Source: Phycisphaerae bacterium (GTDB lineage Bacteria; Planctomycetota; Phycisphaerae; UBA1845; Fen-1342). From it: a stretch of 64,000 nucleotides of DNA. The notes below the pieces were generated by a model. The model was not told where the DNA came from. It did not search any database and worked only from the letters and a program-made list of their open reading frames with translations. The DNA is taken from positions 64,001 to 128,000 of the forward strand of contig JASFQK010000004.1 of NCBI GenBank assembly GCA_050115495.1, in the 5' to 3' direction. Positions 14,630 through 34,359 of this stretch are shown here, one piece after another; positions within the stretch are counted from its first letter, which is position 1, and each line of letters opens with the position of its first letter. The position numbers and the translations under genes were made by a program.

Positions 14630-14686
14630 GGCCGCCGGATCGAGGCGCGTCGCAGGGGTTGCAGTGCCTGCGAACGCCGCCGAGTC

Positions 14687-16348: not shown

Positions 16349-16350
16349 CC

Positions 16351-16680: not shown

Positions 16681-16726
16681 CAGGGGGACTGCTTGCCCCC
16701 GAACGCCACCTGGACAGCACAGTTAC

Positions 16727-17143: not shown

Positions 17144-17359
17144 CTACCGCTCCTTCCGCGTGAGACGCGGGCCGCCGGCCTCGCGGGCCGAGATCGTCAT
17201 CGAATGGAACATCGTCCCCGGCATCCGCAATACCCCTGTCGGAAGCCTGCCCATCACGGGCCCCAAACCTGTTAGGTGCAGTATCGTCCACCGGCAGGCC
17301 CGCGGTCAAGCCGCAGGAAACCCGGCGGGATCGCCGACGCGTCAGACCGGGTCAACGTG

Positions 17360-18400
17360 TCAGCCTTCCTTGGCGTCGCCGACCGCGAACTGGCGCCCGC
17401 ACTCCGGGCAGCGGTGGCCGTGACTCGGTAGGCCGCGAAGGCTGTAGCCGCACTGTGGGCAGACGGGATTGGACGGGTCGATGGCTGCCTTGTAGCGCAA
17501 CACGAAGATGAAGAACCACAGGGCGACTGCCGGCGCACACAGCCCGTCGACAAACAACTGCACGGTTTCAGCCCCGGGCCCTCCCTGAAGAGCAACGGTG
17601 CCGCCGTACCAGCAGACGATCTCCGGCACCGCGACTGCGCTCGTGGCACAGACTAGGGCGAACGCCGCCGCCGGAATGCGCCTGGCTCGCCCAAGAATGA
17701 GGCCTACCCCGGCCCCCAGACAGATCAGCGGCAACAGCGGCCTCGTGATGTACCATAACGCCCACTTCCAATCCATGCCCCAGTCCACGTTGCACGCGTA
17801 GCCATGCTCACCTGGATCAAGGAACAACAGGCAGTACCAGAAGCTGCCGCAAGCACCGTAGATGACCAGCGTCCAGGCCACGACGACCATCGAGCGGGTC
17901 GGCCTGCACCGGCTGCGCCAAGCAGCCCACACGACGCAGGTCGGTATGGCGACTTCCGCCGTCCACACCAGCGCTACCCCGATACACACGAAGGTCGAAG
18001 GTGGATCAACCGCCCACTCATGAGTGGTAGAAGACAGCGATAGGATGGTCTCAGCGAGCATGACCCCGCAGACAAGTGTCACGGCCGCGAGCCACGCGGT
18101 AGGCCTGCGCCACAGCACCAGGCCGGCCAGCAGCGCAAGGACCCCCGTGGCCACAGAGCACAAGTACCGGGCTTCGTCGATGAGCGCCCATGTTCCGGTG
18201 CTGCCGTACCAGGATCCTGTGAGCGCCCGGTAGAGCGGTCCGTCGTTCCGACAGAGATCCAGCAACGCGCTGGCCGCGCCAAAGATGCCGACGACCAGCA
18301 GATAGCCGGTCACCAGGGCTGCGCGAGTCTCCCTGGTTCGGTCAGCCCAAAGGGGATGCCGGGCGACCGGGGGACCGTCTATCGCGACCGACGTTCGCAT
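17360..18400 (-). CDS. Multi-TM protein with C-terminal Zn ribbon
   Basis: About 8 TM helices; CPQCGYSLRGLPSHGHRCPECG. Confidence 0.8.
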   Translation of the reverse strand: MRTSVAIDGPPVARHPLWADRTRETRAALVTGYLLVVGIFGAASALLDLCRNDGPLYRALTGSWYGSTGTWALIDEARYLCSVATGVLALLAGLVLWRRPTAWLAAVTLVCGVMLAETILSLSSTTHEWAVDPPSTFVCIGVALVWTAEVAIPTCVVWAAWRSRCRPTRSMVVVAWTLVIYGACGSFWYCLLFLDPGEHGYACNVDWGMDWKWALWYITRPLLPLICLGAGVGLILGRARRIPAAAFALVCATSAVAVPEIVCWYGGTVALQGGPGAETVQLFVDGLCAPAVALWFFIFVLRYKAAIDPSNPVCPQCGYSLRGLPSHGHRCPECGRQFAVGDAKEG

Positions 18401-18509
18401 TCGTTAGGCCTCGCTCTATCCCCGGTCAACCACGCACCGCCGCAGACCCAGTTGTTCTGCGCTTGGTGATCGGACGGCATATTCCGCCGAACCCCGCGCG
18501 GCGCCGGCG

Positions 18510-19172
18510 TTACTTGAACGGTGTCCCGCATTCCGGGCAGCGCTGCGCGGCCAGTCCGTGGCGCGGGTACCCGCAGACCACGCACAACGACGCTCGCCGG
18601 CGACGCCAGCGCCGCAGCAAACGCCAGGCGGGGCCGATCAACAGCAGTGCAGCGATGAACCCCAACACGCCCGCCGCGACCCGGGCGGGCACGGCGAATG
18701 CGGACGAGCCCCTTACTGTGATGATGCCGAGGTTGCGCAGACGCGTCCAAGCGCTGGGCGACCGCGCCAGGAGCTTCGTCGCGAGCAGGAAGAGGACTGT
18801 CCTCTCCTCCTCGTCTGCAACGGCACGTTCGGCCTTCAGAACACTACGCTCCGAGAGAAGCAACGCCTGTTTGGCGTCATACGCACCGTCGGCGGTCTCC
18901 TTCGGCTCGGGCAGACGGCGCAGCTCACGTTCGGTCCGCTGTTGAGCCTCCCATGGCCCCGAGCGCGTCGAGACGAACACCAACTCCCGCGCGGCGGTGT
19001 ACACGCGCACCTGCACCAGGGGAATGTCCCCGACCGTACTGAGCCGCATGTCTCGGCCCACCCACAGACACCACCCCGCGCCTGTCAGGCACAGCAACAC
19101 GCAGATAATACGCACTGCCGCCACCGCGGTTCGCAAGGGCCGTCGCCGTCGGTGCTGCATAGCGGTGCTCAA
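18510..19172 (-). CDS. 2-TM protein with C-terminal Zn ribbon
   Basis: RRWRRRRASLCVVCGYPRHGLAAQRCPECG. Confidence 0.75.
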   Translation of the reverse strand: MSTAMQHRRRRPLRTAVAAVRIICVLLCLTGAGWCLWVGRDMRLSTVGDIPLVQVRVYTAARELVFVSTRSGPWEAQQRTERELRRLPEPKETADGAYDAKQALLLSERSVLKAERAVADEEERTVLFLLATKLLARSPSAWTRLRNLGIITVRGSSAFAVPARVAAGVLGFIAALLLIGPAWRLLRRWRRRRASLCVVCGYPRHGLAAQRCPECGTPFK

Positions 19173-19228
19173 CAGATGGGCAAAGGACGTACGCCTGAGT
19201 ATCTGCGACTACTTGTCGGCTCCCCCCT

Positions 19229-19837
19229 TCATTCCAGCCATTCACTGTGCATGGGGAACGGCTTCGCCAGCGTTTCTGCGTCCGCCATCTCCAGGGAGAG
19301 AGCCTGGTCCGTCAGAGCGATGATCGGATGGAGCGGGTTGGCGACGGTTCGCTCCCGCACGTCGCGCGCAACCAGGCGGCCGTTGCCTCGTCGGCACAGA
19401 CACCACCCGCCCGCATCCACCGGGATCGCGTCATTCGCGGGCAGCGACTGAATCGTCTGGTCCACGGCGTTTGTCAGCGTCTGCAGTTGCTCGCTCGACA
19501 GGTGCCCCTTGATGTACGTCTTCCCGATCGCGTCCGGCGCCGTGCACCGCACGAACGTCCCATCCTGCCATACCGCGAAGACCACGCCGCCGACAACCTC
19601 CTCGTTCACGCCGGGGTAGTGCGGGATACGCTGGAGGAACACCATGGGCTTGCCGGCGGCCTGTGTCGCCGGCGGCTGCCGCGACGAAGCGTGCTGCCCC
19701 TCGGCACAGCCCGGCAGGCCGAGCAGGCCCAATCCGACCACAACACATAGGGTCGCGGCTCTGCTGTGCTTCGCTCTCCGCGTCACACAACGCCGCCACA
19801 CGCAGGCAAACCAGCTTCGACCGTGTTTTGTCCCCAT
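19229..19837 (-). CDS. Hypothetical lipoprotein
   Basis: Hydrophobic stretch ending LPGC; start uncertain. Confidence 0.6.
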   Translation of the reverse strand: MGTKHGRSWFACVWRRCVTRRAKHSRAATLCVVVGLGLLGLPGCAEGQHASSRQPPATQAAGKPMVFLQRIPHYPGVNEEVVGGVVFAVWQDGTFVRCTAPDAIGKTYIKGHLSSEQLQTLTNAVDQTIQSLPANDAIPVDAGGWCLCRRGNGRLVARDVRERTVANPLHPIIALTDQALSLEMADAETLAKPFPMHSEWLE

Positions 19838-20058
19838 CTCATACTCCCCGGCGGGCTTGCCCCGCCCCTCGGCCAGTGGTTCGAGGATCTGCGACCCCGC
19901 GTCGGGCCTCTCGCCCGGCAGCCCGCCGGCTGCCCCACCATGCCGTTGCAGCGTGCCGTTAGCGTACGTGGCCTACCCCTCGGATGCAAACGTGCGGGCG
20001 GTGATGCAAAGGCTGTCCCGCCGCCCCGGATTGACGTCGATCAAACGTGATCGCGCCT

Positions 20059-20631
20059 CTACTCACCCGGTGGCTCTTCGCCCGGTTCGTGCGGCGGGGT
20101 GATCGGCGTGCCGCATTCGGGGCAGACGCCGCTGACGTTGCCCGTCAGGTTGTAATCGCACTCCGGGCAGCGTGGCGGGCCCGATCGTCGCTCGCGGGAC
20201 CGGATCGCGATTCGTGCCAGACCGTGTGCAGCGCCCGCCAGCATGAGCGAGAAGCACAGAACCGGCAGCATCAGGTGCCAATCCCGCACAAGGCGAAATG
20301 TCCCCTGAGAGATCATCTCGCAGATCATGCCCACCGCCGCCGGCGTCACCCACATCGTGACCGCGCCGGCGATCGTGACCCACCACTTCCGCTGCCAGGC
20401 GCCCACGACGCCGACCGCCACGTTCAGGCCCAGGACCATGCCGGCCGCCACGGAGACCACATAACCGCGCGTCACGGTCGGGGCGAGACGCACCAGCAGA
20501 CCGATGTGCATCAGCAGCAAACTCGCCCCGCACACGCACAGCAGCCACCCGACGCTGTGCGTCCGCAACCACGCCGCGAGTCGGCGGACGAACGGCTCAT
20601 CGGCGGATCGATCTGGCTTGTCCCCAGCCAC
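20059..20631 (-). CDS. 4-TM protein with C-terminal Zn ribbon
   Basis: CPECDYNLTGNVSGVCPECG. Confidence 0.8.
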   Translation of the reverse strand: MAGDKPDRSADEPFVRRLAAWLRTHSVGWLLCVCGASLLLMHIGLLVRLAPTVTRGYVVSVAAGMVLGLNVAVGVVGAWQRKWWVTIAGAVTMWVTPAAVGMICEMISQGTFRLVRDWHLMLPVLCFSLMLAGAAHGLARIAIRSRERRSGPPRCPECDYNLTGNVSGVCPECGTPITPPHEPGEEPPGE

Positions 20632-20670
20632 GATGGCCTCGCTACGTGTGGGCGCGCTGCCTTCCCCGCC

Positions 20671-22374
20671 CTAGGGCTCGTACGTGAAATTCACGTGATT
20701 CACGCCGTGGCAGTTCAGCGTGCACGAGCCGCGGCGCTGGCCGGTGTCCACGTACCCGCGCCGGCCGCCGACGATGGAGAGGTCGAAGTTGATCAGGTGC
20801 CCGTGGTTGCCCGTGCTGCCGCTGACGCCGTGGGCCGTGTGGCACGCGCTGCACGGCGTTCGCCCGCGGACGACGTGCTCGCGGTGCAGTGGGAAGCTCT
20901 CGTCGCCGAGAATCGACGCCCGATCGTGACAGCCATAGCACAGCGCATACGCCTGCGGCGATTCGACGGTGTAGTCGCTCGTCTCGTACCGGTCGGCGAG
21001 CAGATACGCGTAGCGCGACCCGTGCGGTCCGTTCACGAGCGTCCCGCCGGCACTGCGGGCGTCCGGGTTGTTGTGGCAATCCTGGCAGCTCACGAACCGC
21101 CGGGCCTGCACTTCCGGCGTGAGGCTCGGCACATCGGCCCCGAGTCGGCGAGGAAACGCGACCGGGTGCGCCGAAGCGGTCGTTGGCAGGAACTGGCGGC
21201 GTACGTTGCCGTCGGTGTCCCGCTGGCGGACGATGCGCTCCGGCACGTACACCGGCCGATCCGCGTGACAGCGGAAACACACTTCGTAGTAGAACCGCGC
21301 CGCCGACAACGGCGCTCCCGTCAGCGACACGCCCGGAACATCCTTCATCGCCGGCGGCACGAGCGGCCCGACCACGCCGACGCGCGTCGCCGTGTCGCCC
21401 AGCGTCGCGTTTACCGCGTGCGGGTTGTGGCAATCGGCGCACGTGACCATCACCGACGGCCGCAGCCCCCGCGCCGGCGACCGCTCCGGATTCAGCACGT
21501 GGCTGAGCCGATGCCCGCTGCGCAGATTCAGCACGGGCATGATGTCGGTAGCGCTCAGCCCGTCGTGGCAATTGAGACAGAGCCGATCCGGCCGATCGCG
21601 CAGCAGCCGCGGCCGCCACGGCGCGCTATGCGACACGTGACACGCCGCACACGCATTATCCGCCAGCGAGCGGTAGGGGAGCGCTTCGCCATTCGTCGCA
21701 CTCGGCGGCACCGAGCGCACGCTGCGGGCGTGAGCGCTGGCTGACCAGCCGTCCATATCGTGGCACGTGTTGCACAGTGCCCCCTCACGCGACGTGACCC
21801 GCAGGAAATCGCCGAGCTCATTGTTATGTGGATCGTGGCACGCCGTGCATTCCAACTCGCCCCAGCGCCCCAGCTTCAACCGATGATCGACCAACTCCGG
21901 CGAGCGGAGCTGCCGATCGCGATTGCACAACGCTCGGTCGTACCGCAGCCCGACCGGATGATCGTCCGACAGATCGTTCGTCAGATCGCTCGGCCCCGAC
22001 GGCATGTACGGATGCGTCAGCGGAATCGGTTCTGTCGCCGCCCGATCGAGCGTCAGCCCGAGGGCGATGCTGCCGTCGTGACAGCTCAGGCAAAGCCGAC
22101 TGGCCGGCCCCGGCTGCCCGATGCGGGCGTCGGTCGTATCGCTGCGGTAAATGCGATAGTACGTCGTCGGCTGATGGCGGTTCCACAACGGAGCCGCCGG
22201 GTCGGCGTTGTGCGGCGTGTGGCAGAAGATGCACACCTGCGTCTCTTCGAGCGCCCGCACCGGCCCCGGCCCCCAGATCGACAGGTCATGTTTCGAGCGC
22301 ACGACCGAATCGTCCGCCCCCGCCACCCCCAGCAGCATCAGGCTCAGCATGGTGGCGACTACGACCCGCATCAT
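20671..22374 (-). CDS. Exported multiheme cytochrome c (11 CXXCH + 1 CX3CH) with N-terminal OmcE-like tetraheme domain
   Basis: Signal peptide; SKHDLS...CIFCHTPHNA...PLWNR...CLSCHDG...DLSDDHPVG...CTACHDPHNN..FLR...LCNTCH, then 7 more CXXCH and a terminal CTLNCH. Confidence 0.9.
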   Translation of the reverse strand: MMRVVVATMLSLMLLGVAGADDSVVRSKHDLSIWGPGPVRALEETQVCIFCHTPHNADPAAPLWNRHQPTTYYRIYRSDTTDARIGQPGPASRLCLSCHDGSIALGLTLDRAATEPIPLTHPYMPSGPSDLTNDLSDDHPVGLRYDRALCNRDRQLRSPELVDHRLKLGRWGELECTACHDPHNNELGDFLRVTSREGALCNTCHDMDGWSASAHARSVRSVPPSATNGEALPYRSLADNACAACHVSHSAPWRPRLLRDRPDRLCLNCHDGLSATDIMPVLNLRSGHRLSHVLNPERSPARGLRPSVMVTCADCHNPHAVNATLGDTATRVGVVGPLVPPAMKDVPGVSLTGAPLSAARFYYEVCFRCHADRPVYVPERIVRQRDTDGNVRRQFLPTTASAHPVAFPRRLGADVPSLTPEVQARRFVSCQDCHNNPDARSAGGTLVNGPHGSRYAYLLADRYETSDYTVESPQAYALCYGCHDRASILGDESFPLHREHVVRGRTPCSACHTAHGVSGSTGNHGHLINFDLSIVGGRRGYVDTGQRRGSCTLNCHGVNHVNFTYEP

Positions 22375-23402
22375 GCACCCTCCGCCAGATACTGGAACAC
22401 CTGCACCCGGCGATTGTAACTGTCTGCGATCCAGATGCGATCCTGCCCGTCGATTGTGATGCCCGACGGCACCGAGAACTCGCCCGGCCCCGTCCCGCCC
22501 TGACCGAACGCCAGCAGCAACTGCCCCTCCGGCGTGAAGATCTGCACGTTTTCGAACTGGTTATCGAGCACGTAGACGTGTCCCGCCGAATCCACCGCCA
22601 CGCCGCGCGGCCGCGAGAAATCGCCCGCGGCGTCGCCTTTGCGGCCGAAGACGGCGAGCGGCCTGCCTGTCATGCTCAGCACCTGCACGCGGAAGTTCAT
22701 GGCGTCGACGACGACCAGCCCTTGCTCCGGGCAGATCGCGACGTCGCTGGGGTAGTTGAGCGCGCCCGGCACGCCGCCGCGCCGGCCGAAGCGCTCGCCA
22801 ATATCCGTCAATCCGCGACAGGCGACGCAGGCGTGCGCGGTAACGTCCGCCAGCCACAGCGTCTGCTGCGTCTCATCCCACGCCGCCGCCGCCGGCGCGG
22901 CGATCTCCGGCCACCGTCGGGTGCAACGCCACGTTCCATCCGGCTCGAACAGATCGACCGCGGCGCGGGCCCGATCGACAACGACCAGCGTCCGCCCACC
23001 CTCCGCCAACTCGACGTCGATCGGCACTTGCAGCGGATCCGCCGGCGAGCCCGTCGTCACCGCGTACGTCCGCGCTTCGAGATCCAGCACATGGACGGCG
23101 GCGAGGCCGGTGTCGGCGACGAAAACACGCGAGCCGGCGACAGCCACCGCCGACGGACGCGAAAACGCGCCTTTCGGCGCCGGTCCAGTCAGCGCCGCCC
23201 GCATCGCCTCCCACCCGCCGACGCGCCGATGCAGATCCGCCTCGCCGCGCAGCTCCCCCACGTACCGAATCCGGGCCTGGTCCGGCGGCTTCGGCCACAC
23301 GATCGCCGGCGAGACCTCGGGAAACACCGGTTGCAGCGGCCCCTGGCAGCCCATCGCCGCCAGCAACACCACCAGCATGACCGGCCCGGCGACGCGCCTC
23401 AT
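22371..23402 (-). CDS. NHL-repeat beta-propeller lipoprotein
   Basis: LAAMGC lipobox; repeats FSRPSAVAV, LNYPSDVAI, FSRPRGVAVD, FSVPSGITID...IADSYNRRVQVF; translationally coupled to both neighbours. Confidence 0.9.
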   Translation of the reverse strand: MRRVAGPVMLVVLLAAMGCQGPLQPVFPEVSPAIVWPKPPDQARIRYVGELRGEADLHRRVGGWEAMRAALTGPAPKGAFSRPSAVAVAGSRVFVADTGLAAVHVLDLEARTYAVTTGSPADPLQVPIDVELAEGGRTLVVVDRARAAVDLFEPDGTWRCTRRWPEIAAPAAAAWDETQQTLWLADVTAHACVACRGLTDIGERFGRRGGVPGALNYPSDVAICPEQGLVVVDAMNFRVQVLSMTGRPLAVFGRKGDAAGDFSRPRGVAVDSAGHVYVLDNQFENVQIFTPEGQLLLAFGQGGTGPGEFSVPSGITIDGQDRIWIADSYNRRVQVFQYLAEGA

Positions 23403-25516
23403 CGTTCCTTCCTCGCCAGAACCGGGATGTCCCGCTTCAGCTTCAGCCAGAACGCCGCCGAGTTGTCCCGTGAGCCCGGTAGATCGAGCAGGTCGTACTC
23501 CGCCTCGAACCGCAGCGAGAAGTAGCCGATGTGCCACTCCACCGCCGCGTTGAAGTCCACGCCGTGCGTACGCCCGTACAGCGTGTCGTCCTCAAACCGG
23601 TACATGCCGCTCGCCGTCAGTTCGAGCTGCCGGCTCAGCAGTTGGCGATACGACAGGCCGCAATCGAGCAGCGTCGTGTTGCGGGCTTCGAGCCCTTCCG
23701 ACCCGTCGAACCAGAAGCGCGACAGCGTGCTGCGCCCGTCGAGCTGCCTATCCGCCGCCTGCCAGATGACGACGTCGCCGTTGGCGTGCACCGCCTGGAA
23801 CGGATCGATGGCGTCGTCGTTGTATTCGTATTCGAGGCCGGCGGACCACCGCGGCTGTCGGAACGTCGCCCCCAGCCGGTGCCGGTTGACGTTGCGGGCG
23901 CGGAAGCCCAGGTGCTCGCCGCGGTCCAGGTCCTCGTTCTGCACCGACGCCGCGTAGTAGGGCGTCAGGCCGCAGTCGAACGCCTGCTGCATGCGGAAAT
24001 CGATGCGATCGCGGGCCACGTCGTAGTTGTTCTGGACGCGGTACGTGTAGCTGACCAGAACGCCTTGCCGGTCGGCGATCTGCCCGGTCGGCATGCGTCG
24101 CAGAGCCGTATACCGGCCGAGCGGAACGACCAGGTAGTCGCGGCCGGCCAGGTACGTCCGCGTGCGGTTGGCGTCGGTAACGACCAGGCTGCCCAGGTTC
24201 ACGTCGGTGTGCGCCAGGTAGACCGGCAGCGGGTCGCGGAACGTCACCGACTCACCGATGACCACGCCGCTGCGCCGCCCGTTGCGCGTCTCGGTCGAGG
24301 CGTGGTTGTACGACAGGTTCGCGCTGAACCGGCCGAGATCGTTGTCCCGCGTCAACGCCGTGCCGAGCATGCCGCCCCACTCGTCCCAGTCGGCGTTCTC
24401 GTCGGCGCTGGTTTGCAGGGCGTAGAGCTGGGCCGACGTGGTCAGCCAGTTGTCGAACTGGTGCGTGAGGCCGGCCTCGCCGCGCCAGGTGCTCGTTTCG
24501 AGATCCTGGAACGTCTCGCGCAGATACTGCGCGGCGAAGTTCGTCGCCAAGGCGTCGGTGCACTGGAGGCGCAGGCGCGAGGAGAACTCGGCCAGATCGC
24601 GGGCCAGATCGCCGGACTCGTCCTGGAACCGGGCCAGTGTTTCGACGGAGCTGCGGCCCTCGGGCCCGAAGCGCAGCACGTGACGGAGCAGGACGTCGTC
24701 GCGCGTCGTGTCGAAGCGCGTGTCGGTGCCGGAGTACCGCTCGCGGCGGTCCTCGTGCTCATATTCGAGCGTGAGGGCGTGCAGTTCGCTGATCTGCCAC
24801 GTGCCCTCGTAGCGCACGGCGTGGCGGCCGCGCTGCTCGTCGTCGCTCAGATCGTGCGTGCGGCTGGTGAGCTCGTCCCATTCGTGCTCGAACGTCAGCC
24901 GCATGGGCAGCTTCTCATCGTTATAGAACAGGCCGGCGGTGTATCGCTCGCGGGTACGGTCCAGGCTGGGCAGAAACGCCCGCGGCAGCCGGCTGCTCTC
25001 GCGGGAGGCCTGTGCCGTGGCGGAGAGCTTGCCACGCGGCAGGAACGTCAGATTCACGTCGTATTCGAACAGATCGCCGTGGGCCCGGCTGTCCCGGTCG
25101 CGGCCGGTCCAGGTCTCGTGGAAGTGCTCCTGCGACAACCCCCAGCGCAGATCCCAGTCGAATTGCAGCACGCGGTCGTCGATGACCGACCCGGCCCCGC
25201 GTGCGCCGAACGTCTCTTCGAGCCGCCAGGCCCGGTCCGTCTGTTTCGCGTAGCCCCCGCGTGCCCCGGCCACCCGCGAGCGGTTCTCACGTCGATCGGC
25301 CTGCGCCTCGAAGCCGAGCTCGAAGGTCAGCTCGTCGAAGGCGAACAGACCGCGTTCGTTGCCGGCGGGCGCCGTAGCCGGCGCCGGTGCCGATGTGGGC
25401 GCGGAAGTTACGGGTTGAGTAGTGGGGGGCGAAGCGGGCGGTTCGGCGAGCGCGGCTGCGCCCGGCAGAAGCGCCGCCCCGAAGGCAACACCGACGAAGC
25501 GGAGAGGCCGTCGCAT
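23399..25516 (-). CDS. Putative large outer-membrane beta-barrel protein (porin-cytochrome conduit or secretion channel)
   Basis: Signal peptide, Pro/Ala-rich linker, ~650 aa of alternating aromatic/polar beta-strand pattern, no hemes; co-transcribed with NHL and multiheme genes. Confidence 0.7.
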   Translation of the reverse strand: MRRPLRFVGVAFGAALLPGAAALAEPPASPPTTQPVTSAPTSAPAPATAPAGNERGLFAFDELTFELGFEAQADRRENRSRVAGARGGYAKQTDRAWRLEETFGARGAGSVIDDRVLQFDWDLRWGLSQEHFHETWTGRDRDSRAHGDLFEYDVNLTFLPRGKLSATAQASRESSRLPRAFLPSLDRTRERYTAGLFYNDEKLPMRLTFEHEWDELTSRTHDLSDDEQRGRHAVRYEGTWQISELHALTLEYEHEDRRERYSGTDTRFDTTRDDVLLRHVLRFGPEGRSSVETLARFQDESGDLARDLAEFSSRLRLQCTDALATNFAAQYLRETFQDLETSTWRGEAGLTHQFDNWLTTSAQLYALQTSADENADWDEWGGMLGTALTRDNDLGRFSANLSYNHASTETRNGRRSGVVIGESVTFRDPLPVYLAHTDVNLGSLVVTDANRTRTYLAGRDYLVVPLGRYTALRRMPTGQIADRQGVLVSYTYRVQNNYDVARDRIDFRMQQAFDCGLTPYYAASVQNEDLDRGEHLGFRARNVNRHRLGATFRQPRWSAGLEYEYNDDAIDPFQAVHANGDVVIWQAADRQLDGRSTLSRFWFDGSEGLEARNTTLLDCGLSYRQLLSRQLELTASGMYRFEDDTLYGRTHGVDFNAAVEWHIGYFSLRFEAEYDLLDLPGSRDNSAAFWLKLKRDIPVLARKER

Positions 25517-25627
25517 GGCACCGTTCGTTTCGTCACCATAGACCGCGACCGGAAGCGCTGATACGCGGAAGCTAGCGGTCAGCGTGCGTACTGTCCAGCG
25601 CAACCGCGGCTTTTCAGTCACAGAATG

Positions 25628-25656
25628 TTGTATCGCGCCGGCCGGTTCGCTATAGT
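25628..25656 (+). promoter_or_regulatory. Putative sigma70 promoter for the OmcE-like operon
   Basis: TTGTAT-17 nt-TATAGT in the divergent intergenic region. Confidence 0.45.
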
Positions 25657-25804
25657 TCTTCTGCGCGGGCAGTCTGTTGGAAGAAGAGGGGACCGGCTCT
25701 GAGCCGAGATGTTCGGGCCGATCCGGGAACCACACGATGCGTGCCTGTCCCCGTTCGTTTCAACCGATTGCCGAGCGCCGGTGCATTTCCCTAGGAGCTC
25801 GCCC

Positions 25805-26488
25805 ATGATGCACGGACGGCCTAGCCGTATCGCGGTCCTGGCCGGCTTGGCCGTTGCGGCCGGTAGCCTCCTCTTCGCCCAGGTTGCCGACCAGGGACCA
25901 CCGGGCGATACCGACGCGCCTCCGCCTGCGTCCCAGCCCACGTCGCAGCCGGCGGAAATGGGCGCTGCCCGCGCCCATCTCGTCAGCGGCCTGATCGGCA
26001 GCAAGCACGATTTCACTCAAAACGGTCGCCTCGGACGTGATTTGTGCCTGCCCTGTCACACGCCGCACCTGGCGTCGGCGCCGACACCGCGGTTCGATCG
26101 CCGGCCGGAGACGACGCTGCCGCTCCGGCCGTACGATGCTCCCGGCATTGAGCTGACGGGCTGGTCGCTGCTCTGCCTGGGTTGTCATGACGGCGTGACC
26201 GCACCGGACGTCTACTCCTCGGCCCATGCCCTGATCGCCGACGACGCCCTCGGAAACTCGCGGCTGGGCACCACGGGCCTGCGCAGCCACCCGGTGGGCA
26301 TCGTCTACCCGGCCAATGGCGAGGGCTATCACCCGCGGGCGGCGGTCGAGGCCGCCGGTCTGCTGCTGCCCGACGGCCGTATCCAGTGCACAACCTGTCA
26401 CGATGCCCACAACACGCATCGTCACAGCGGCATGTTGAAGATTTCCAACCAACAGAGTCGGCTTTGTCTGACATGTCACGATCTCTAG
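25805..26488 (+). CDS. OmcE-like tetraheme cytochrome c
   Basis: AGGAG RBS, signal peptide; GSKHDF...CLPCHTPH...CLGCHDG...SHPVG...CTTCHDAHN...LCLTCH near the C-terminus. Confidence 0.85.
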   Translation: MMHGRPSRIAVLAGLAVAAGSLLFAQVADQGPPGDTDAPPPASQPTSQPAEMGAARAHLVSGLIGSKHDFTQNGRLGRDLCLPCHTPHLASAPTPRFDRRPETTLPLRPYDAPGIELTGWSLLCLGCHDGVTAPDVYSSAHALIADDALGNSRLGTTGLRSHPVGIVYPANGEGYHPRAAVEAAGLLLPDGRIQCTTCHDAHNTHRHSGMLKISNQQSRLCLTCHDL

Positions 26489-28497
26489 ACAAGTGCAGGT
26501 CAGCGCGACGCCGAGTGGCCGGGGGGCTGGTCGTGGTCGCGCTCGTCGTGCTGGCCACGGTTGCGGGGTTGACGGGTGCGGGTTGCGCCGGCGGCGAGCG
26601 CCACGGGCCGTCGGCGTGGCCCGCCTACCCACCTGCTCCGCAGATCCCCCGTGTGCTCGCCCGCGGCACGCTCCGCGGGGCGCCGCCGCCGTCGTCCTCT
26701 TCTGTCGAGCTCTCCATGTTCCTCTTCGGGGCGGAGCCGCCGGCCAAGCTGGTGCTGCTGAACCCGACGGGGCTGGCCGCCCGTGGCGGCGAGTCGCTCA
26801 TCTGTGACAGTGCCGTCGGCGAGTTGCTCTGCTGGAACGCCGACACCGCCCAGTTGCACGGCGTGGCCGCCGATCCGCCGCTCGACCGTCCCTTCGCCGT
26901 CGGTCTCACCAACGATGGCGGGACGCTCATCTGCGACCGGTCGGGCGTTCGCCGGAACGACGCGGCCGGGCGGCTTCAGTGCCGGTACACGCTGGCCGAT
27001 GAGCCGTTCAAGCCGGCGGGCGCGCTGGCCGTCGGCGAAGAGGTCTGGGTGACGAACCTCGCCCAGCATCGCGTCGAGGTTTTCGCCGCCGATACCGGGG
27101 CCCATCTCCGCTCCATCGGGCGGCACGGCAGCGGGCCGGGCGAGTTCGCCCTGCCGCGCAGCCTGGCCCGCACGCCCGACGGCAACGTCTGCATCGTTGA
27201 CGTGCTGAACAACCGCGTGCAGATGCTCGCCCCCGACGGAACGTGGCTCCGCGACATCGGACAGCCGGGGGACAACGTGGGTTCGTTCGGGCGGCCGAAG
27301 GACGTCGCCGTCGGCCCCGACGGCACTATCTTCGTGACCGACGCTTTCTCGCAGCGCGTGCATGCCTTCGCTGCCGACGGCACCGTGCTGCTGGCGTTTG
27401 GCGAGCCCGACTCGGGCCCGAACGCTCTCGTGCTGCCCAGCGGCATCGCCGTCTCCACCGTCCCGCCCGAGCACTACACGCCGCTCCCCCCCGGCGAAGA
27501 TGTGTCGTATTACGTGCTCGTCGCCGAGCAACTGCACGATCCCGGCGTGCGCGTGTACGCCTGGCTCGACGCGGCGGGGCGGGCGGAGGACGCGCCGCTT
27601 TCCTCCGGCATCGCTACGCACTGGCAGCCGCAGTTTCCCCAGTCGGCGGCCATTAACCCGCACTGGCATCCCGACCGTTGCGACAAGTGCCACAAGCTGG
27701 AAGACGGCCGGCGTTTGCCCATTCCGCCGCAGGACGTCGATGCCGTCTGCGTCTCCTGCCACGACGGCGTGCAGGCTTTCGCCGATCCGCATCCCATCGG
27801 CCGCCCGGCCGTGACCGATCTCGTCACCACGCCCGATGACTGGCCGACCGTCGACGGCCGGATCGGCTGCCTGACCTGCCACGATATGGAGCGGCACTGT
27901 CGGCCCGACGCCCAGCGGCCGGACAGCAACGTCGTGCTCCTGCGGCACTTCGACCCGCAGCGGGCCCTCGCCTACTGCGAGACCTGTCACCGCACCGAGC
28001 TCGGCTATCGCTTCAGCCCGCATCGGCAGCGCGACGCCCAGGGCAAGATCCGCGAGGATGCCTGTCTCTTCTGCCACACGCAGACGCCGGAAGTCCCCGC
28101 CGACGGCCGCCGCCGATTTGAGCCGCACCTGCGTGTGGAAAGCTCGGCGTTGTGTCTGAATTGCCACAGCAAGCACTGGGACCTGTCGCCGCTCGGGCAC
28201 GTCGATCGCCCGGTGACGCCGCACATCCGCGAGTGGATGCTGAAACGCGAACTGAGCCTCGACACGCAGATCACGCCGGCGGAGCTGGCCAGGATGGCCG
28301 CCGACCCCAAGCGGCACCCGGCGCGTCTGCCGCTCGGCGAGAACATGGTGACCTGCTACACCTGCCACAACCCGCACTACAACGGCCTGTTCCCGCCGGA
28401 CAGCGAGGTCGGCGCCCTCGCCAGCAACCCGCAGGATCGCCGCAGCGCCCTGCGCACGGACTGGATCGACCTGTGCTCCGAATGTCACGAACGGTAG
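26473..28497 (+). CDS. NHL beta-propeller / octaheme cytochrome c fusion lipoprotein
   Basis: GAGC lipobox-like; NHL repeats, then CDKCH, CVSCH, CLTCH, CETCH, CLFCH, CLNCH, CYTCH, CSECH. Confidence 0.88.
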   Translation: MSRSLDKCRSARRRVAGGLVVVALVVLATVAGLTGAGCAGGERHGPSAWPAYPPAPQIPRVLARGTLRGAPPPSSSSVELSMFLFGAEPPAKLVLLNPTGLAARGGESLICDSAVGELLCWNADTAQLHGVAADPPLDRPFAVGLTNDGGTLICDRSGVRRNDAAGRLQCRYTLADEPFKPAGALAVGEEVWVTNLAQHRVEVFAADTGAHLRSIGRHGSGPGEFALPRSLARTPDGNVCIVDVLNNRVQMLAPDGTWLRDIGQPGDNVGSFGRPKDVAVGPDGTIFVTDAFSQRVHAFAADGTVLLAFGEPDSGPNALVLPSGIAVSTVPPEHYTPLPPGEDVSYYVLVAEQLHDPGVRVYAWLDAAGRAEDAPLSSGIATHWQPQFPQSAAINPHWHPDRCDKCHKLEDGRRLPIPPQDVDAVCVSCHDGVQAFADPHPIGRPAVTDLVTTPDDWPTVDGRIGCLTCHDMERHCRPDAQRPDSNVVLLRHFDPQRALAYCETCHRTELGYRFSPHRQRDAQGKIREDACLFCHTQTPEVPADGRRRFEPHLRVESSALCLNCHSKHWDLSPLGHVDRPVTPHIREWMLKRELSLDTQITPAELARMAADPKRHPARLPLGENMVTCYTCHNPHYNGLFPPDSEVGALASNPQDRRSALRTDWIDLCSECHER

Positions 28498-28539
28498 CAA
28501 CGCCGCGGGGTCGGGCCGGCCCCGGCGACGCGAGGACGG

Positions 28540-29853
28540 ATGATGCCACAGAATTGCGCCCGTAAGTCATACGTCTGGCGGCTGCTGGCGGTCGGTGTCG
28601 CCGCCGTGTCGCTCGGACTCATCCTCGTCGGCGGGTGCCCGGTGACGTCCGGCGATAGCTCTACGGACGGCGGGTTCGAGTTCAAAAACGACGCCGACCC
28701 CACCAACGGCGGGGCGAGCTACATCGGTTCGGTGGCGTGCGGCGCCTGCCACACCACCATCGCCGCCACGATGCAGAAACACGCCCACGCCCACGCCCTC
28801 ACGCCAATCCTCGGCCAGGCCCCGACCTTCCCCGCCGAAGCCACCCGCGCCGGCGTGCCCAACCCGCCGACCGGCCTTGCCTGGACCGACGTCAGCTACG
28901 TCATCTCTGGCTATCTGCATGGGGCGTTCTTCGTCGATGCGGACGGGTACGTTCTGACCGACGGGGTGGCCGGCGTGAACACGGGGTGGCAGTTGGCTTT
29001 CCCCGCCAACGGCACCGCCGCAGGCTTTGCCGCATACCTGCCCGCTCAGGTTGCGCCCAAGCCGTACGAGTACGAGACCTGTTTCCGCTGCCACACGACC
29101 GGCCCGCAGCCGCAGGACGCCGATCACCCCGAATCACAGGACGGCCGCCCCGGCATTCACGGCACCTGGGCCGAAGTCGGTGTGCAGTGCGAAGTCTGCC
29201 ACGGTCCGGGCAGCTTCCATGCCCCGCAGCCGGCCGAACGCGATATCTATGTTGATTCCGCCGCCACCGTCTGCGGCACGTGTCATACGGAGGGCGATGA
29301 TCCGGACGTGATCGTCTCCGCCGCCGGCTTCATGAGCGGCACCACGCAGTATCCGCAGTTGTTGGCCAGCGGCGGCCACAGCGATTTCGCCTGTGTCACC
29401 TGCCACGACCCGCACGCGTCGATCACGTACGACCGCACGAACGGTCTGCGTAACGACTGCACCGCCTGCCACACCGACGTGAACATGGCCTTCCACGACG
29501 GGGCCGTCTTCACCTTCGGCGACTACACCGAGACGGTGAACTGCCAGAGCTGCCACATGCCGCTGGCCGGCCTGAGCGTGAGTTCCGCCCCGGCGTCGCT
29601 CGTCGGCGACCTCGCCCGCATCGGCGACGTCCGCGCCCACATCTTCCGCATCGACACGCAGCACCCCGGCTACTCGGCGATGTTCACCGCTGATGGCACC
29701 GCGGTGCAGAAGGACGCCGCCGGCCGCGCCGCCGTCACGGTCGATTTCGTGTGCCTACGCTGCCATCACGGCGAGGGCAACGTCTTCCCCCTGACACTCG
29801 ACGGCGCCGTGACCATTGCCCGCCAGATCCACGCCCACGCCGAAGAAGAATAG
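28540..29853 (+). CDS. Octaheme cytochrome c lipoprotein (c554-like motifs)
   Basis: LVGGC; YIGSVACGACH, CFRCHTTG, GVQCEVCHGPGS; 8 CXXCH in total. Confidence 0.9.
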   Translation: MMPQNCARKSYVWRLLAVGVAAVSLGLILVGGCPVTSGDSSTDGGFEFKNDADPTNGGASYIGSVACGACHTTIAATMQKHAHAHALTPILGQAPTFPAEATRAGVPNPPTGLAWTDVSYVISGYLHGAFFVDADGYVLTDGVAGVNTGWQLAFPANGTAAGFAAYLPAQVAPKPYEYETCFRCHTTGPQPQDADHPESQDGRPGIHGTWAEVGVQCEVCHGPGSFHAPQPAERDIYVDSAATVCGTCHTEGDDPDVIVSAAGFMSGTTQYPQLLASGGHSDFACVTCHDPHASITYDRTNGLRNDCTACHTDVNMAFHDGAVFTFGDYTETVNCQSCHMPLAGLSVSSAPASLVGDLARIGDVRAHIFRIDTQHPGYSAMFTADGTAVQKDAAGRAAVTVDFVCLRCHHGEGNVFPLTLDGAVTIARQIHAHAEEE

Positions 29854-29912
29854 CAACCCACCCCGCACCGAAGCCGCGGACCAGCAAGCCGCGGCAGGGG
29901 GGCGCAATAGAG

Positions 29913-29949
29913 AAGGCCGGCCCGGACAGCTTGTGCCCGGACCGGCCTT
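29913..29949. terminator. Hairpin between convergent cytochrome genes
   Basis: AAGGCCGG...CCGGCCTT inverted repeat. Confidence 0.45.
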
Positions 29950-29975
29950 GTCGTTGAGCGGCAGCTCGTATTTCG

Positions 29976-31541
29976 TCAGCGAGCCAGCGGGTCGGTCAGC
30001 CCGACTTCCGTCCAGAACGCCGCCACGCCGTGGCAGTCGCTGCAGTCCAGGGCCATACTGGCCGGGGCCACCTCGTGGTTGATCGTGAGGTAGCTGACCG
30101 TGTGGGCGAAGCCATAGCTGCCGCTGTACGGCTGGCCCGTATAGGCCGCGCCGTCGGTGATGGCCAGGCCCCAGTCGTACTTGCTCCAGTACGGGTTCGC
30201 CCCGCCGAGCGTGCCGAACAGGTGCGGCACCATGATCCGCTTGTTCGTCAGGTCCGCCGGCTGCGCGCCGAGCATCTTCTTGAACGGATAGATCTTCGCG
30301 CCCGACGTGGCGCTCGTGGCCGTCGGCGCGGCGACGATTACGGGATCGGCCTCGGTGCCGGCGGCCGCATACGTGTCGGTCTCGTTGATGACCATGCGGC
30401 TCCAGTTGCCGTCGTACCACAGGTAGCTCGGCTGCACGCCCTGCGCCCAGACGAACGTGCCCTTCATCTTGTCATACAGCGGCCGGCCGTACTGGTCCGT
30501 GGTGACCGTGCGGGTGGCGTCGCCCGCCTCGCTCCAGTCCCACTCAACCTTCGTCGGCATGCTGCGGGCGAACGTCGGGATGTGGCAGGTCTGGCAGGCC
30601 ACGCGGTCCAGGTGCAGGTTGAGCAGGAAGGACACCGCCGAATTCGCCGCGTGCACGTTCGTCGCACCGTGGCAGCGCGTGCAATCGGGCGAGGCGGCGC
30701 CCTCGTCGACCGAGTGCAGCGGCATGCCGGCGATGCCGTGATGGCTTTCCGTGTGGCACGTCTGGCAGGAGAAGTCGTGACCACCCATGTGCACGTCCAT
30801 CTCCTCCGTCGGCTCGACCAGATCCGACGACAGGTCGCCGTGCTTCACATTGTCGCCACCGCCGGCGTAGAAGTGGCAGAAGCCGCAGTTGGCCCGCGTG
30901 GGCGTCCCGACGTTGTAGGCCACGTCCTGAAGCTCCGCCGCCGTCACCACGGTTAGCGTACCGTCGATGTTGAGGGCCGGCGGACCGCCACCGCCGTTGG
31001 CCGACGGGTGCTTCTTGTAGGTGCCGGTCGTGTCATGGCAGATGAGGCAGTCGACACTGTCCGTGTCGGTGAAATCGAACGTGTTGTCCTTCCAGCCGAA
31101 GCTCGGGTGACACTGCGTGCAGCGACCCTCGTTCGACGGGATGGCGATGCAGAAGCTGTTGATGAGGTTCTGCTTGCCGACGTCCTGGCCGGTCAGACCC
31201 TGCACGCGCGTCGTCGTGCCCACCCACGTCCAGTGGCCGGTGTCCACGAAGTCGCGGGCCACGTCCGAGTGGCAGATCATGCAGTTGTCCAGCGACGTGA
31301 ACCCCGTGGTGATGATCTCCGTGAAGATCTTCCCGTGCAGGGACAGCTCGGTCGTCGTGCCGTCACCGTCAGTCGTACCGTCACCATCGGTGGTGCCGTC
31401 ACCATCGGTCGTGCCATCGCCGTCGGTCGTGCCGTCACCGTCCGTCGGCGGCAGGAACGACGTGAGACAGCCGCCCATCGAGAAAGCCAGAAGAAGGCTC
31501 AAACCGCAGACGGTCAGCCAATGCAGAGGGCGTCTTACCAT
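29976..31541 (-). CDS. Octaheme tetrathionate reductase (OTR)-family cytochrome c, lipoprotein
   Basis: MGGC lipobox; CMICH..HWTW...GKQNLINSFCI..SNEGRCTQCH...CLICHDTTGTYKK...CGFCHFYAGGGDNVKHGDL...DVHMG...KIYPFK...INHEVAP; 8 CXXCH. Confidence 0.9.
   Translation of the reverse strand: MVRRPLHWLTVCGLSLLLAFSMGGCLTSFLPPTDGDGTTDGDGTTDGDGTTDGDGTTDGDGTTTELSLHGKIFTEIITTGFTSLDNCMICHSDVARDFVDTGHWTWVGTTTRVQGLTGQDVGKQNLINSFCIAIPSNEGRCTQCHPSFGWKDNTFDFTDTDSVDCLICHDTTGTYKKHPSANGGGGPPALNIDGTLTVVTAAELQDVAYNVGTPTRANCGFCHFYAGGGDNVKHGDLSSDLVEPTEEMDVHMGGHDFSCQTCHTESHHGIAGMPLHSVDEGAASPDCTRCHGATNVHAANSAVSFLLNLHLDRVACQTCHIPTFARSMPTKVEWDWSEAGDATRTVTTDQYGRPLYDKMKGTFVWAQGVQPSYLWYDGNWSRMVINETDTYAAAGTEADPVIVAAPTATSATSGAKIYPFKKMLGAQPADLTNKRIMVPHLFGTLGGANPYWSKYDWGLAITDGAAYTGQPYSGSYGFAHTVSYLTINHEVAPASMALDCSDCHGVAAFWTEVGLTDPLAR
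31356..31445 (-). repeat. Intragenic 18-bp tandem repeat encoding (TDGDGT)x5 linker
   Basis: Read directly; synonymous codon variation between units. Confidence 0.9.
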
Positions 31542-31715
31542 GTGGTGTTCCTCCTTCACTACAGCCGCGTGCCCGCGCAGCACCGCCCGGTTGTACTCGT
31601 GAATTGTCAAAGGCACCGCTTGTCGGCTGCGAAGCTCCGTGTCCGGGGCCGTCGGCCAGACAGCCTACGCTCGCCTGCACATGCCGCAGTATCGGCAGAC
31701 GCCGCAATCCGCACA

Positions 31716-31755
31716 ATCGCCCACAGAGGGGGGCGCACTCCCCCATTGGGGGAGT
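31716..31755. promoter_or_regulatory. Candidate tandem LuxR/NarL-type operator upstream of the otr-like gene
   Basis: ACTCCCCCATTGGGGGAGT palindrome (31737-31755) plus weaker copy ATCGCCCACAGAGGGGGG 21 bp away; similar to 34297-34336. Confidence 0.45.
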
Positions 31756-31826
31756 CATCGCCGGCGGAGTCCGAATGCCACGAAGACGTCCGGGGCAGAG
31801 CCCGGACGCTACACGGGCGCCCGGTC

Positions 31827-34154
31827 CTACGGGCTCGCGTGGCTCGTCTCCACCGAGAACGCCGCTCCGGAACCGTGGCATACGGCGCAGCTCTCGGAGA
31901 ATGTGCCCGCCAGCGTGTTCAATTGCACGTGCACGGCCGCTGCCGGCGAATCATGGCAAGACGTGCAGGCCACCATCCAGATGCCCACGTCGTCGCGTTC
32001 CTCGGGTGTATTCCACGCGTCTGTCGCATGGCAGGCCGCGCAGTACGCCGGACCGCCGGGCATGCTCGGCAGCCACCCGGTCGAGAAGTCCTGCAGGCGA
32101 TTGCCATGGCCTACCATGTCGTACGCCCCGCCCTCCTGTACGACGTACAGGTCGCGGGCCGCGTGGATCTTGTGGATCATCACCTTGAAGTCGATGGTGT
32201 CCGCCGCCGGATCCTGCGTTCCCGAACCGGGCGTCGGCAGGTCTTCGGCACCGGCGGTGTGGCACACGACGCAGTTCTCGACGCCGCGCCGCGTGTTGCC
32301 GTGGAAGCGCAGATCACCGTGGCAGTCGTTGCACTTCGCGTCGGTCACGAAGCCAGGATACGCCGCCGCCGTCCCCGCCGAGCCGACGCGGATCGCGTAC
32401 ACGCCCGGCATCGACGTGTCGCGGTACGTCGTCCCATCCAGCGTGAACTGGCGGTACGCGTAGACCATCACCGTGTAGCTGCCGGCGCCGAGCGCCCGCC
32501 CGCTCAGCTCGCCCCAACCGTCCGCGTACGTGAAGTCCGCCGAGTCATTGAGCGGAGCCGGATACGTCGCCGGAATGGCGTCCGGGCTCGTATACGTGAA
32601 CGGTCCCGTGCCCGTCGTCGGCACGCCCCCGGCGCCCTTCAGGCTCACCGTCGACGTGCTGCCGGCGGGGATGATCTTCTGGTAGTTCTCGACCGGGCCG
32701 GCGATGACCATGTTCACCGTGTAGTCGCTGATGTCGACCGCGGTGCCGCTCTGATCCAGGATCTGGAACGTAACCACCGGCGTGTCGCCGACCGCGAAGA
32801 AGCCCGACCCGCTGTTGCCCGTCACTGACTGGATGACCACCTGCGGGTCGACCGCCAGTGTCGGGTCGATGGCCGGCGGGACGTGCACGGCGGCAACGCC
32901 CCACGTCTGGTTGGCCCCGTGGCAGTACGTGCAGGACCCGTCCGGCGCCGCATGGGTGATGCCGCCCGGTTCCGTCCGGTACGCTGCATCAGAGAGCTGA
33001 TCCTTCGTCAGCGTGCCGTTGGCGACAGCGGCGTTGTCCGGATCGAGGATCGTGCCCGCAGTGAAGTCGATGTCGTCGTGGCAGGTCTGGCACTGCTTCC
33101 GCACCAGGTTGCTTTCCGAGTAGATCTCGGCTTCCTGCGTCGCCCCGCCGTGGCAGGCCTGGCAGTTGCGCATCTGCTCGTTGAAGCCGGTGCCGCCCGG
33201 CATGAACGGGAACGCGATCTCGGAGTAGTCGTGGACAGACTCACCGTAGCCGATGACCTCGTAGTGGTACGGGTCCGCCCCGTTGGCCGTGGCTGCGACC
33301 TCGCGCAGCTCTGCCCCGCGGTGCAGCCGGTGGATCAGCTCGGAGAACTCGATCGACACGCCCGTCGTCGCCTTCGCCGCGTCGCTCGAAGTACGGTCTT
33401 CGGAGCCGGCGGTGTGGCACAGCACGCAGCCGGTGACTTTGTAGCGGTTCTCGCCGTGTGCCGAGAGCTCCGCGTGGCACGCGTTGCAGTTCTCTTGCAG
33501 GACGAGCTGCCGCGGCGAGACCGTGGCTGCGCCGATGGCGAAGTCGGCCGTGACGTCGCCGGCCTTGCGGACGCTGGCCCCATCGACCGTGAACGTCCGC
33601 CGGGCCTCGATGCCCACCGTGTACGTTCCATCCATGAGCGCGTCGCCCGTCATCTCACCGTCCGCCGTGCCGAACGCCGCCGAATCGTAGTACGGAGCGG
33701 CGTAGACGCTGGGCATGCCGTCGGCGAACGTATACGTGTAGGAGCCGTCGTCGTTGACGGTGACGCTGTCCGCGTCGCCCTCGGGCTCAATGACACGCTG
33801 GTAGTTGCTCGCCGGCCCGGACACGTAGATGGAGAAGCGGTCGAGATCGTCGAAGTCGATCGTCTCGCCGTCGTCGTCTTCGAGCGTGAACGTCACGCTG
33901 AACGCGCCGCCGGGCGTCACGGCAGCGCCGCCGTTCACGGCGGTGACGGCGACGATGGTTTCCGGCGGCGTGGCGCCTGCGTCGAGACCGGCCGGACCCG
34001 TCGGACCCTGTTCACCCGCCGGGCCTTCCGGCCCTTCCGGGCCTTCCGGGCCTTGCGTCGCCAGGTCCAGCGGACAGCCGCCCAGCCCACATAGCACCAC
34101 CACGGCGAGTCCCAGGATCCCGAGGCTGCGCCATCCCGTCATTACGCGCGCCAT
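31827..34154 (-). CDS. OmcA/MtrC-family decaheme cytochrome c lipoprotein with collagen-like stalk
   Basis: LGGC lipobox, (GPE)n stalk, two heme-free beta domains each followed by 5 CXXCH (CNACH..HG..R...CVLCH; IDFKVMIHKIH; CTSCH...ESCAVCH). Confidence 0.88.
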   Translation of the reverse strand: MARVMTGWRSLGILGLAVVVLCGLGGCPLDLATQGPEGPEGPEGPAGEQGPTGPAGLDAGATPPETIVAVTAVNGGAAVTPGGAFSVTFTLEDDDGETIDFDDLDRFSIYVSGPASNYQRVIEPEGDADSVTVNDDGSYTYTFADGMPSVYAAPYYDSAAFGTADGEMTGDALMDGTYTVGIEARRTFTVDGASVRKAGDVTADFAIGAATVSPRQLVLQENCNACHAELSAHGENRYKVTGCVLCHTAGSEDRTSSDAAKATTGVSIEFSELIHRLHRGAELREVAATANGADPYHYEVIGYGESVHDYSEIAFPFMPGGTGFNEQMRNCQACHGGATQEAEIYSESNLVRKQCQTCHDDIDFTAGTILDPDNAAVANGTLTKDQLSDAAYRTEPGGITHAAPDGSCTYCHGANQTWGVAAVHVPPAIDPTLAVDPQVVIQSVTGNSGSGFFAVGDTPVVTFQILDQSGTAVDISDYTVNMVIAGPVENYQKIIPAGSTSTVSLKGAGGVPTTGTGPFTYTSPDAIPATYPAPLNDSADFTYADGWGELSGRALGAGSYTVMVYAYRQFTLDGTTYRDTSMPGVYAIRVGSAGTAAAYPGFVTDAKCNDCHGDLRFHGNTRRGVENCVVCHTAGAEDLPTPGSGTQDPAADTIDFKVMIHKIHAARDLYVVQEGGAYDMVGHGNRLQDFSTGWLPSMPGGPAYCAACHATDAWNTPEERDDVGIWMVACTSCHDSPAAAVHVQLNTLAGTFSESCAVCHGSGAAFSVETSHASP

Positions 34155-34296
34155 TGTTGATCTCCTCACCGGTTGTTGACTTGGCCCAGTGCGTGAATAC
34201 CAGAGATGCGTCACATCCTTCGGCTCGCGTTCATATTACCGCTTCGCCGCGCGCACGCAAGCAGAATGCTCTTCTGAACTGCATGTTTCGTCGCCC

Positions 34297-34336: not shown

Positions 34337-34359
34337 GGAAACTCTCGCGCCGCGCGTCG

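Follow-up and report, generated by a model that had tools for sequence, protein, structure and literature searches.

An OmcE-like cytochrome, NHL propeller and beta-barrel module in a Phycisphaerae bacterium: a sister of the omcE nanowire cluster and a possible finite electron conduit

How OmcE filaments start, stop and are anchored is posed as an open question in the Discussion of PMC13712944 and in section 5.4 of PMC12307469. It can be approached through a gene module (positions 20671-28497) in a 64-kb stretch of DNA from a Phycisphaerae bacterium, referred to here as the window. An original prediction, made from the letters alone, had read the module as an OmcE-like filament locus with assembly and anchoring parts. 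We asked whether it encodes such a nanowire or another device built from related pieces. By sequence comparison, the omcE cluster has a sister that is widespread and uncharacterised. The module is a lineage-specific variant of this sister, and we give an even chance to its being a finite electron conduit across the cell envelope. The analysis adds a separation of two barrel types, a fused anchor and signs of a finite chain.

The module and its OmcE-like domains

All five open reading frames (ORFs) of the module were present and intact, with the haem counts originally predicted. The minus strand carries a 12-haem cytochrome (20671..22374; 567 aa, Sec-type signal, 11 CxxCH motifs and one CxxxCH), a first NHL beta-propeller protein, NHL1 (22371..23402; 343 aa, lipobox cysteine), whose gene overlaps each neighbour by 4 nt, and an outer-membrane beta-barrel (23399..25516; 705 aa, approximately 28 strands, Pro/Thr leader). 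A divergent intergenic region of 288 bp (25517..25804) separates the barrel gene from the plus-strand gene of an OmcE-fold tetrahaem cytochrome (25805..26488; 227 aa, signal peptide, four CxxCH, a Pro/Thr/Gln leader of approximately 40 residues). The tetrahaem stop is overlapped by 16 nt by the start of a second beta-propeller, NHL2, fused to an octahaem domain (26473..28497, plus strand; 674 aa, lipobox cysteine, eight CxxCH), which we call NHL-octahaem. These positions and overlaps bear out the predicted layout of a barrel-NHL-12-haem operon divergent from a tetrahaem gene that is coupled to an NHL-octahaem fusion. No sigma-70-like site was found in 19800-30500. Both propeller proteins scored over the Pfam NHL cut-off, and the lipobox-like cysteine of NHL1 was present in the 20 relatives inspected.

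The four CxxCH motifs of the tetrahaem are arranged as two paired motifs in the predicted order (KHD...CxxCHTPH...CxxCHDG...HPV...CxxCHxxHN...LCxxCH-end), and 0 of 20000 shuffles of the protein yielded four. Its only PDB matches at E ≤ 1 were the OmcE chains 9YUQ (E 6e-9) and 7TFS (E 2e-6). The distal histidines 68, 88, 162 and 202 aligned with those of OmcE in the alignment to 9YUQ; with all eight haem-ligating histidines aligned to solved OmcE, the predicted likeness held. The four distal histidines were all kept in 117/119 close homologues. Named homologues are from Phycisphaerae or Planctomycetota. The chain ends two residues past the last haem motif, and this tail was kept in every one of the 118 four-motif homologues. 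Membership of the OmcE-fold family is thus supported at the level of sequence. The AlphaFold2 model of the tetrahaem was of low confidence (pLDDT, the predicted local distance difference test, 42.2), and a Foldseek ranking from so poor a model carries no meaning. With the signal peptide read by eye, approximately 42 residues precede the first histidine of the mature protein, compared with 6-7 in true OmcE. A Pro/Ala/Thr-Gln-Pro leader directly after the signal peptide was found in 48 ORFs of the window genome; as a genome-wide habit, the Pro-rich extension is evidence neither for nor against a block to polymerisation. Such a leader of exported proteins is possibly a glycosylation or sorting signal.

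A second OmcE-like domain had been overlooked by the original prediction. Residues ~20-207 of the 12-haem cytochrome matched OmcE at E 7e-25 and 1e-24, far better than the tetrahaem does, so that this protein is an N-terminal OmcE-fold tetrahaem domain fused to an octahaem domain. Its mature N-terminus is short and OmcE-like, the head retains both N-terminal histidines, and further invariant histidines follow downstream in cis; 14 non-motif histidines were conserved in at least 94 of 102 relatives. Two histidines common among these relatives (81/102 and 88/102) are Glu and Met309 in the window copy, and Met309 may be an alternative axial ligand. The protein scored 59 bits against a cut-off of 192 for DmsE/MtrA.

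The head bears directly on the anchor question. According to the Discussion of PMC13712944, the ideal OmcE anchor has four haems and nine histidines and was found only outside the omcE cluster (Dsoud_2415). The two genomes that carry solved OmcEs, G269 (tetrahaem identical to 7TFS) and G391 (identical to 9YUQ), also encode both halves of the 12-haem cytochrome as separate adjacent genes. The split N-terminal half in G391 (L131:9544-10374), presumably Dsoud_2415 as judged from position and histidine count only, has four haems and a ninth histidine at its C-terminus. Because the split nine-His tetrahaems group with the 12-haem heads at 99/92 in the IQ-TREE tree, the window 12-haem cytochrome is, on sequence grounds, a fused form of the nine-His 'anchor' type, encoded beside the barrel. 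Barrel-less split clusters (L105:7442-10517, L113, L131:8436-11554) recur in many omcE-bearing genomes of the order of G251 and might, in trans, provide true OmcE filaments with an anchor or tip.

The octahaem domain of NHL-octahaem has, among 12 relatives, six invariant non-motif histidines and one kept in 10/12, for eight haems. Its C-terminus is a paired motif of OmcE type followed by two residues, and an OmcE-like tail is likewise found on the 8-haem proteins encoded in true omcE clusters.

The barrel had no Pfam family match. Its AlphaFold2 model, built with 68 aligned relatives, was all-beta (pLDDT 91.9, predicted template modelling score 0.84), with 28 long strands as counted from the DSSP list, no N-terminal plug and a beta insert of approximately 80 residues after strand 17. 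Foldseek ranked MtrB first (6R2Q_B, E 4e-9, template modelling score (TM) 0.46), followed by LptD (E 6.5e-9, TM 0.34-0.35), with the FimD usher at rank 11 (TM 0.31). As modelled, the plug-less barrel could be large enough to hold a cytochrome. The window-type barrel is a single copy in this genome, and no match to the MtrB family (PF11854) was found in the 92%-complete assembly.

Relation to the omcE cluster

The expectation that NHL and multihaem genes adjoin omcE in Geobacter proved true around the 7TFS-identical gene in G269. In each of the two solved-OmcE loci, omcE is accompanied by a cytochrome with 8 haems, another with 11 or 25, a barrel of 755-776 aa and one or two NHL genes. The minimal omcE cluster described by Petersen et al. 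(PMC13712944, the mBio version of the bioRxiv preprint 10.1101/2025.10.22.684050) comprises two multihaems, two propeller lipoproteins, the subunit and a large barrel; two beta-propeller lipoproteins are present in the window module as well. The module is nevertheless not of the omcE locus type, and on this point the original prediction was not supported. The window barrel gave no BLAST match to the omcE-cluster barrel, an hhalign probability of 21.6% and no match to the omcE-barrel hidden Markov model (HMM), whereas it matched the barrel of a second cluster in G269, L104 (26% identity, E 3e-22). The 12-haem cytochrome matched L104:10256-11995 over its full length (34%, E 3e-82). Among four loci compared, both window propellers found their best matches in L104, NHL1 matching the NHL gene beside the L104 12-haem gene. 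Window proteins scored at most 39 bits on HMMs of the omcE helper cytochromes (8-haem and 9-25-haem families), compared with 180-650 for members. A window-type barrel or 12-haem gene was present in 0/16 omcE-barrel loci, and an omcE barrel in 0/106 12-haem loci; these counts cover all loci fetched by then around these genes, with HMMs built from family members and one duplicate dropped, many loci being cut by contig ends. Since the solved OmcEs adjoin another barrel and other cytochromes and the window parts match the second cluster, the module is not the omcE locus.

The gene tree of the tetrahaem alone is not decisive on its relation to OmcE. In the IQ-TREE tree of 68 domains and 189 columns, 14 true OmcEs formed one clade (98/93) that does not include the window tetrahaem and adjoins the Desulfuromonadia sister-cluster tetrahaems (87/80). 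The window tetrahaem fell in a clade of nine from its own order plus one class-level relative (100/98). An earlier FastTree tree had placed OmcE differently. A fourth OmcE-like clade (99/95) comprises the tetrahaems of L119, L127, L132 and L133, each flanked on one side by an NHL protein of ~900-1000 aa and on the other by giant cytochromes bearing 27 to 75 haem motifs.

The second cluster L104 is probably Geobacter sulfurreducens GSU3221-GSU3226, the tags being assigned by position and gene spacing. The spacing of its cytochromes fits GSU3221, 3223, 3226 and 3228, and a response regulator after the 7-haem gene fits GSU3229-3230. In the expression data of PMC4070692 these four cytochromes are uncharacterised, and their expression rises 2.8- to 8.1-fold on hematite and by 1.9- to 3.3-fold on magnetite.

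The module is, by homology, conserved across this Phycisphaerae order. The tetrahaem alignment matched 50 of 251 genomes of the class, where the match may be to either OmcE-like domain, with matches in 12/12, 10/10 and 8/11 sampled genomes of three families in the order of the window. In 20 loci hand-picked from the 50 matching genomes, the barrel, NHL1, 12-haem, tetrahaem and second NHL genes were all present (20/20), as was the grouping of barrel, NHL1 and 12-haem genes (20/20); the head-to-head layout and the NHL-octahaem fusion were each found in 12/20. A search with the 12-haem protein, taken as the best 80 of 632 confirmed loci, covered many phyla, mostly with the colinear order tetrahaem, NHL, small multihaem, barrel, NHL, 12-haem. 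The 106 12-haem loci include 98 with a window-type barrel and 78 with a tetrahaem. The five phyla that PMC13712944 names for the omcE cluster do not include Planctomycetota, and the main text of that paper has no instance of 'planctomyc'. A literature search that reached only a minority of subscription papers found neither this type of cluster nor any planctomycete OmcE-like locus described.

Finite conduit or filament

The finite conduit would be built from parts whose genes, motifs, histidines, homologies, gene coupling and, for the barrel, modelled fold are as described above. In published OmcE structural work, subunits join through one histidine donated across the interface; the OmcE and multihaem literature drawn on in part also comprises PMC13194489, PMC12133095, PMC12954529, PMC12977616, 10.1101/2022.07.17.500359 and 10.64898/2026.02.26.708365. 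In the conduit model, the 12-haem cytochrome would sit inside the barrel in the manner of MtrA inside MtrB. Its OmcE-like head would dock on one tetrahaem through an inter-chain His-to-haem bond, and the tetrahaem would dock likewise on the tail of the lipid-anchored propeller-octahaem protein, a 12+4+8 chain giving ~24 haems in a row. The 12-haem head would be the His-donor end and the tetrahaem a two-faced link. The octahaem would be the His-acceptor end, as its OmcE-like tail and its 6-7 distal histidines for eight haems suggest. By analogy with MtrA, the OmcE-like end of the 12-haem cytochrome would lie on the periplasmic side, with its tail feeding an adjacent MtrC-type decahaem at the surface. 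We infer every one of these contacts, a one-to-one or few-copy stoichiometry and the membrane side. The model assigns no direction to electron flow; a conduit role as such appears likely. An MtrC/OmcA-family decahaem is indeed encoded nearby (31827..34214, minus strand; TIGR03507 264.9 bits against a cut-off of 209.3) and is the likely outer-surface partner, its homologue lying inside the fetched stretch in 2/20 loci. That the genome has such a decahaem, with neither an MtrB match nor a second window-type barrel, was counted for the conduit.

A finite chain is favoured over a long filament by the way the tetrahaem gene abuts the next gene and by lipoboxes and histidine loss in relatives. Between the tetrahaem stop and the signal region of the next gene, the gap was ≤60 nt in 22/30 loci of the window's order and ≥100 nt in 2/30, compared with ≥100 nt in 44/53 other sister clusters and in 13/15 omcE clusters (omcE median 257 nt). 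Only loci with a detected next gene were counted, and eight split, second-copy or unrelated contexts had been set aside beforehand. The intergenic gap after the subunit gene is our own yardstick, not one from PMC13712944, and the window has a 16-nt overlap in its place. In the sister family f2, a tetrahaem lipobox was found in 6/10 main copies by script and in seven by eye. The second histidine of the first pair was lost in 8/34 order-level tetrahaem copies; as the sole histidine lost in relatives, and by comparison with the OmcS case, it is the candidate inter-subunit ligand.

Several observations weigh against the finite conduit and against its sister status. The literature texts examined do not name the residue that acts as the OmcE inter-subunit ligand. 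The gap counts rest on a crude hydrophobic-stretch rule and on related, non-independent genomes. In the window's own family, the four distal histidines were all kept in 12/12 copies and a lipobox was found in 0/12, so the window tetrahaem could still chain to itself, and the genome-wide Pro-rich leader is no special block on such chaining. In three f2 genomes (L140, L142, L143) an additional tetrahaem, which has a lipobox but lacks the second histidine, is encoded beside an octahaem, a misfit to donor-acceptor pairing. The 12-haem cytochrome carries more conserved histidines than the chain model needs. By E-value, MtrB leads LptD only narrowly (4e-9 versus 6.5e-9). Among standalone tetrahaems, the best match of the window tetrahaem was 9YUQ (63.5 bits) rather than the L104 tetrahaem (53.1), and a clade of OmcE with this order's tetrahaems was not rejected by the approximately unbiased (AU) test (p-AU 0.172).

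These points lend substance to the reading nearest to the original prediction, in which tetrahaem subunits, secreted via the barrel, form a long OmcE-like filament outside the cell. The propellers would act in its assembly, and the 12-haem cytochrome would be either the anchor at its base or its tip, with the octahaem at the opposite end. The tetrahaem keeps the four distal histidines and the two-residue tail that such a subunit would use, the parts list of the window equals the minimal omcE cluster of PMC13712944, and the branching of OmcE next to the Desulfuromonadia sister-cluster tetrahaems (87/80) means that polymerisation ability may be shared; the FimD usher is also among the fold matches of the barrel. 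However, the barrel and cytochrome families differ from those of both solved OmcE loci, the tetrahaem gene overlaps the next gene, unlike omcE, and close families show lipoboxes and histidine loss. In the literature found, which gives expression or SNP (single-nucleotide polymorphism) tables only, no filament from the sister cluster is reported. We therefore regard a long filament as rather unlikely. From the original prediction there remain the OmcE-fold family with its axial histidines and a conserved barrel, propeller and multihaem module for trans-envelope electron transfer.

We think it improbable that the barrel, NHL1 and 12-haem cytochrome form a self-contained porin-cytochrome conduit, with the tetrahaem and NHL-octahaem as a separate periplasmic unit passing electrons through transient contacts to enzymes of the surrounding gene island, namely the octahaem of tetrathionate-reductase type, the cytochrome b fusion and the NiFe hydrogenase, free of inter-chain haem ligation. 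That arrangement would suit the relatives in which the tetrahaem-NHL2 block is inverted or distant from the 12-haem gene (G134, G239, G227), as well as the concentration in the window of 9/14 multihaem ORFs of the genome, including an octahaem over the TIGR04315 cut-off. It sits poorly with the presence of exactly four distal histidines at the places they take in OmcE, where one of them is donated in trans, with the tetrahaem being held by 78/106 12-haem loci across many phyla, and with the invariance of the two-residue tail (118/118). A broader form of the finite conduit, which we put forward tentatively and hold for possible rather than probable, is that OmcE-type systems are modular chains with His-donor and His-acceptor ends. 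The 12-haem cytochrome would then be the in-operon anchor sought but not found by nanowire structural work, and this order would have turned the nanowire into a wire of defined length, ~24 haems, capped at both ends and spanning the periplasm and outer membrane. With a fused OmcE-like 'anchor' in the operon of the barrel and two defined end pieces, the question of filament ends becomes testable.

The redox island and known systems

The module belongs to a redox island that extends well beyond it (28540-46943). A further octahaem cytochrome with a lipobox-like cysteine and a weak, below-cut-off UshA-like match (28540..29853, plus strand) starts 42 nt past NHL-octahaem; it probably shares one operon with the tetrahaem and NHL-octahaem, and its homologue adjoins the module in 12/20 loci. 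There follow the octahaem of tetrathionate-reductase type (29976-31616; over the TIGR04315 cut-off), the decahaem, a PAS-LuxR regulator (34360-35007), a multihaem-cytochrome b fusion (35332-37260), an NHL protein fused to 20 haem motifs (38206-41505), an Omp28-like protein with nine haems (41867-44482) and a NiFe hydrogenase (44479-46943), whose large subunit (45495-46943) has a NiFeSe-type score but a cysteine at the selenocysteine position. To the left of the module, a run of small membrane proteins (13434-20631) each end in a CxxC...CxxC zinc-ribbon motif. On another contig, the genome's single cytochrome c assembly domain (G000:C9:111093-111668) lies within a 1195-aa open frame, which suggests a fused maturation protein. 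In ecological terms, the locus suggests that a Phycisphaerae order carries out extracellular electron transfer.

Propellers are not known to be part of Mtr. The likeness to Shewanella MtrAB(C) (6R2Q) consists in a plug-less barrel of similar size as the top fold match and in an MtrC/OmcA-family decahaem 3.3 kb from the module; MtrAB differs in that the window barrel has no PF11854 match and its cytochrome is a 12-haem protein with an OmcE-like head, not a DmsE/MtrA decahaem. By description only, the module can be likened to DFE_448-451/461-465 of Desulfovibrio ferrophilus IS5 (PMC5815863) and to the SEEP-SRB cytochrome operons (PMC5539420, PMC10553843), both of which combine multihaems with NHL propellers and are proposed in these papers to serve electron uptake. 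In the split clusters L105, L113 and L131, which combine NHL, tetrahaem and octahaem genes, the tetrahaem and octahaem genes together match both halves of the window 12-haem cytochrome; they remain two genes, with no barrel in the fetched stretch, whereas the window has a fused gene beside the barrel. The omcE cluster (7TFS of G. sulfurreducens, 9YUQ of Desulfuromonas soudanensis) shares the OmcE-fold tetrahaem with eight aligned histidines, NHL lipoproteins, a large barrel and an octahaem with an OmcE-like tail, while its barrel and helper cytochrome families differ. As a caution, finding an OmcE-like gene next to a barrel and propellers is not enough to identify an omcE locus, as at least two barrel families carry such genes. 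L104 shares with the window the barrel, the full-length 12-haem cytochrome, both propellers, an OmcE-like tetrahaem and the order of tetrahaem and then second NHL gene. It is colinear with a pentahaem, which in colinear order lies between the second NHL gene and the barrel in 52/106 loci and is thus common, not universal; in the window, the operons are divergent, the pentahaem is replaced by an octahaem joined to the second propeller, and the tetrahaem, unlike that of L104, carries a long leader and is encoded by a gene that overlaps the next. As the sister cluster of a cultured Geobacter, L104 offers the easiest test ground for the anchor question.

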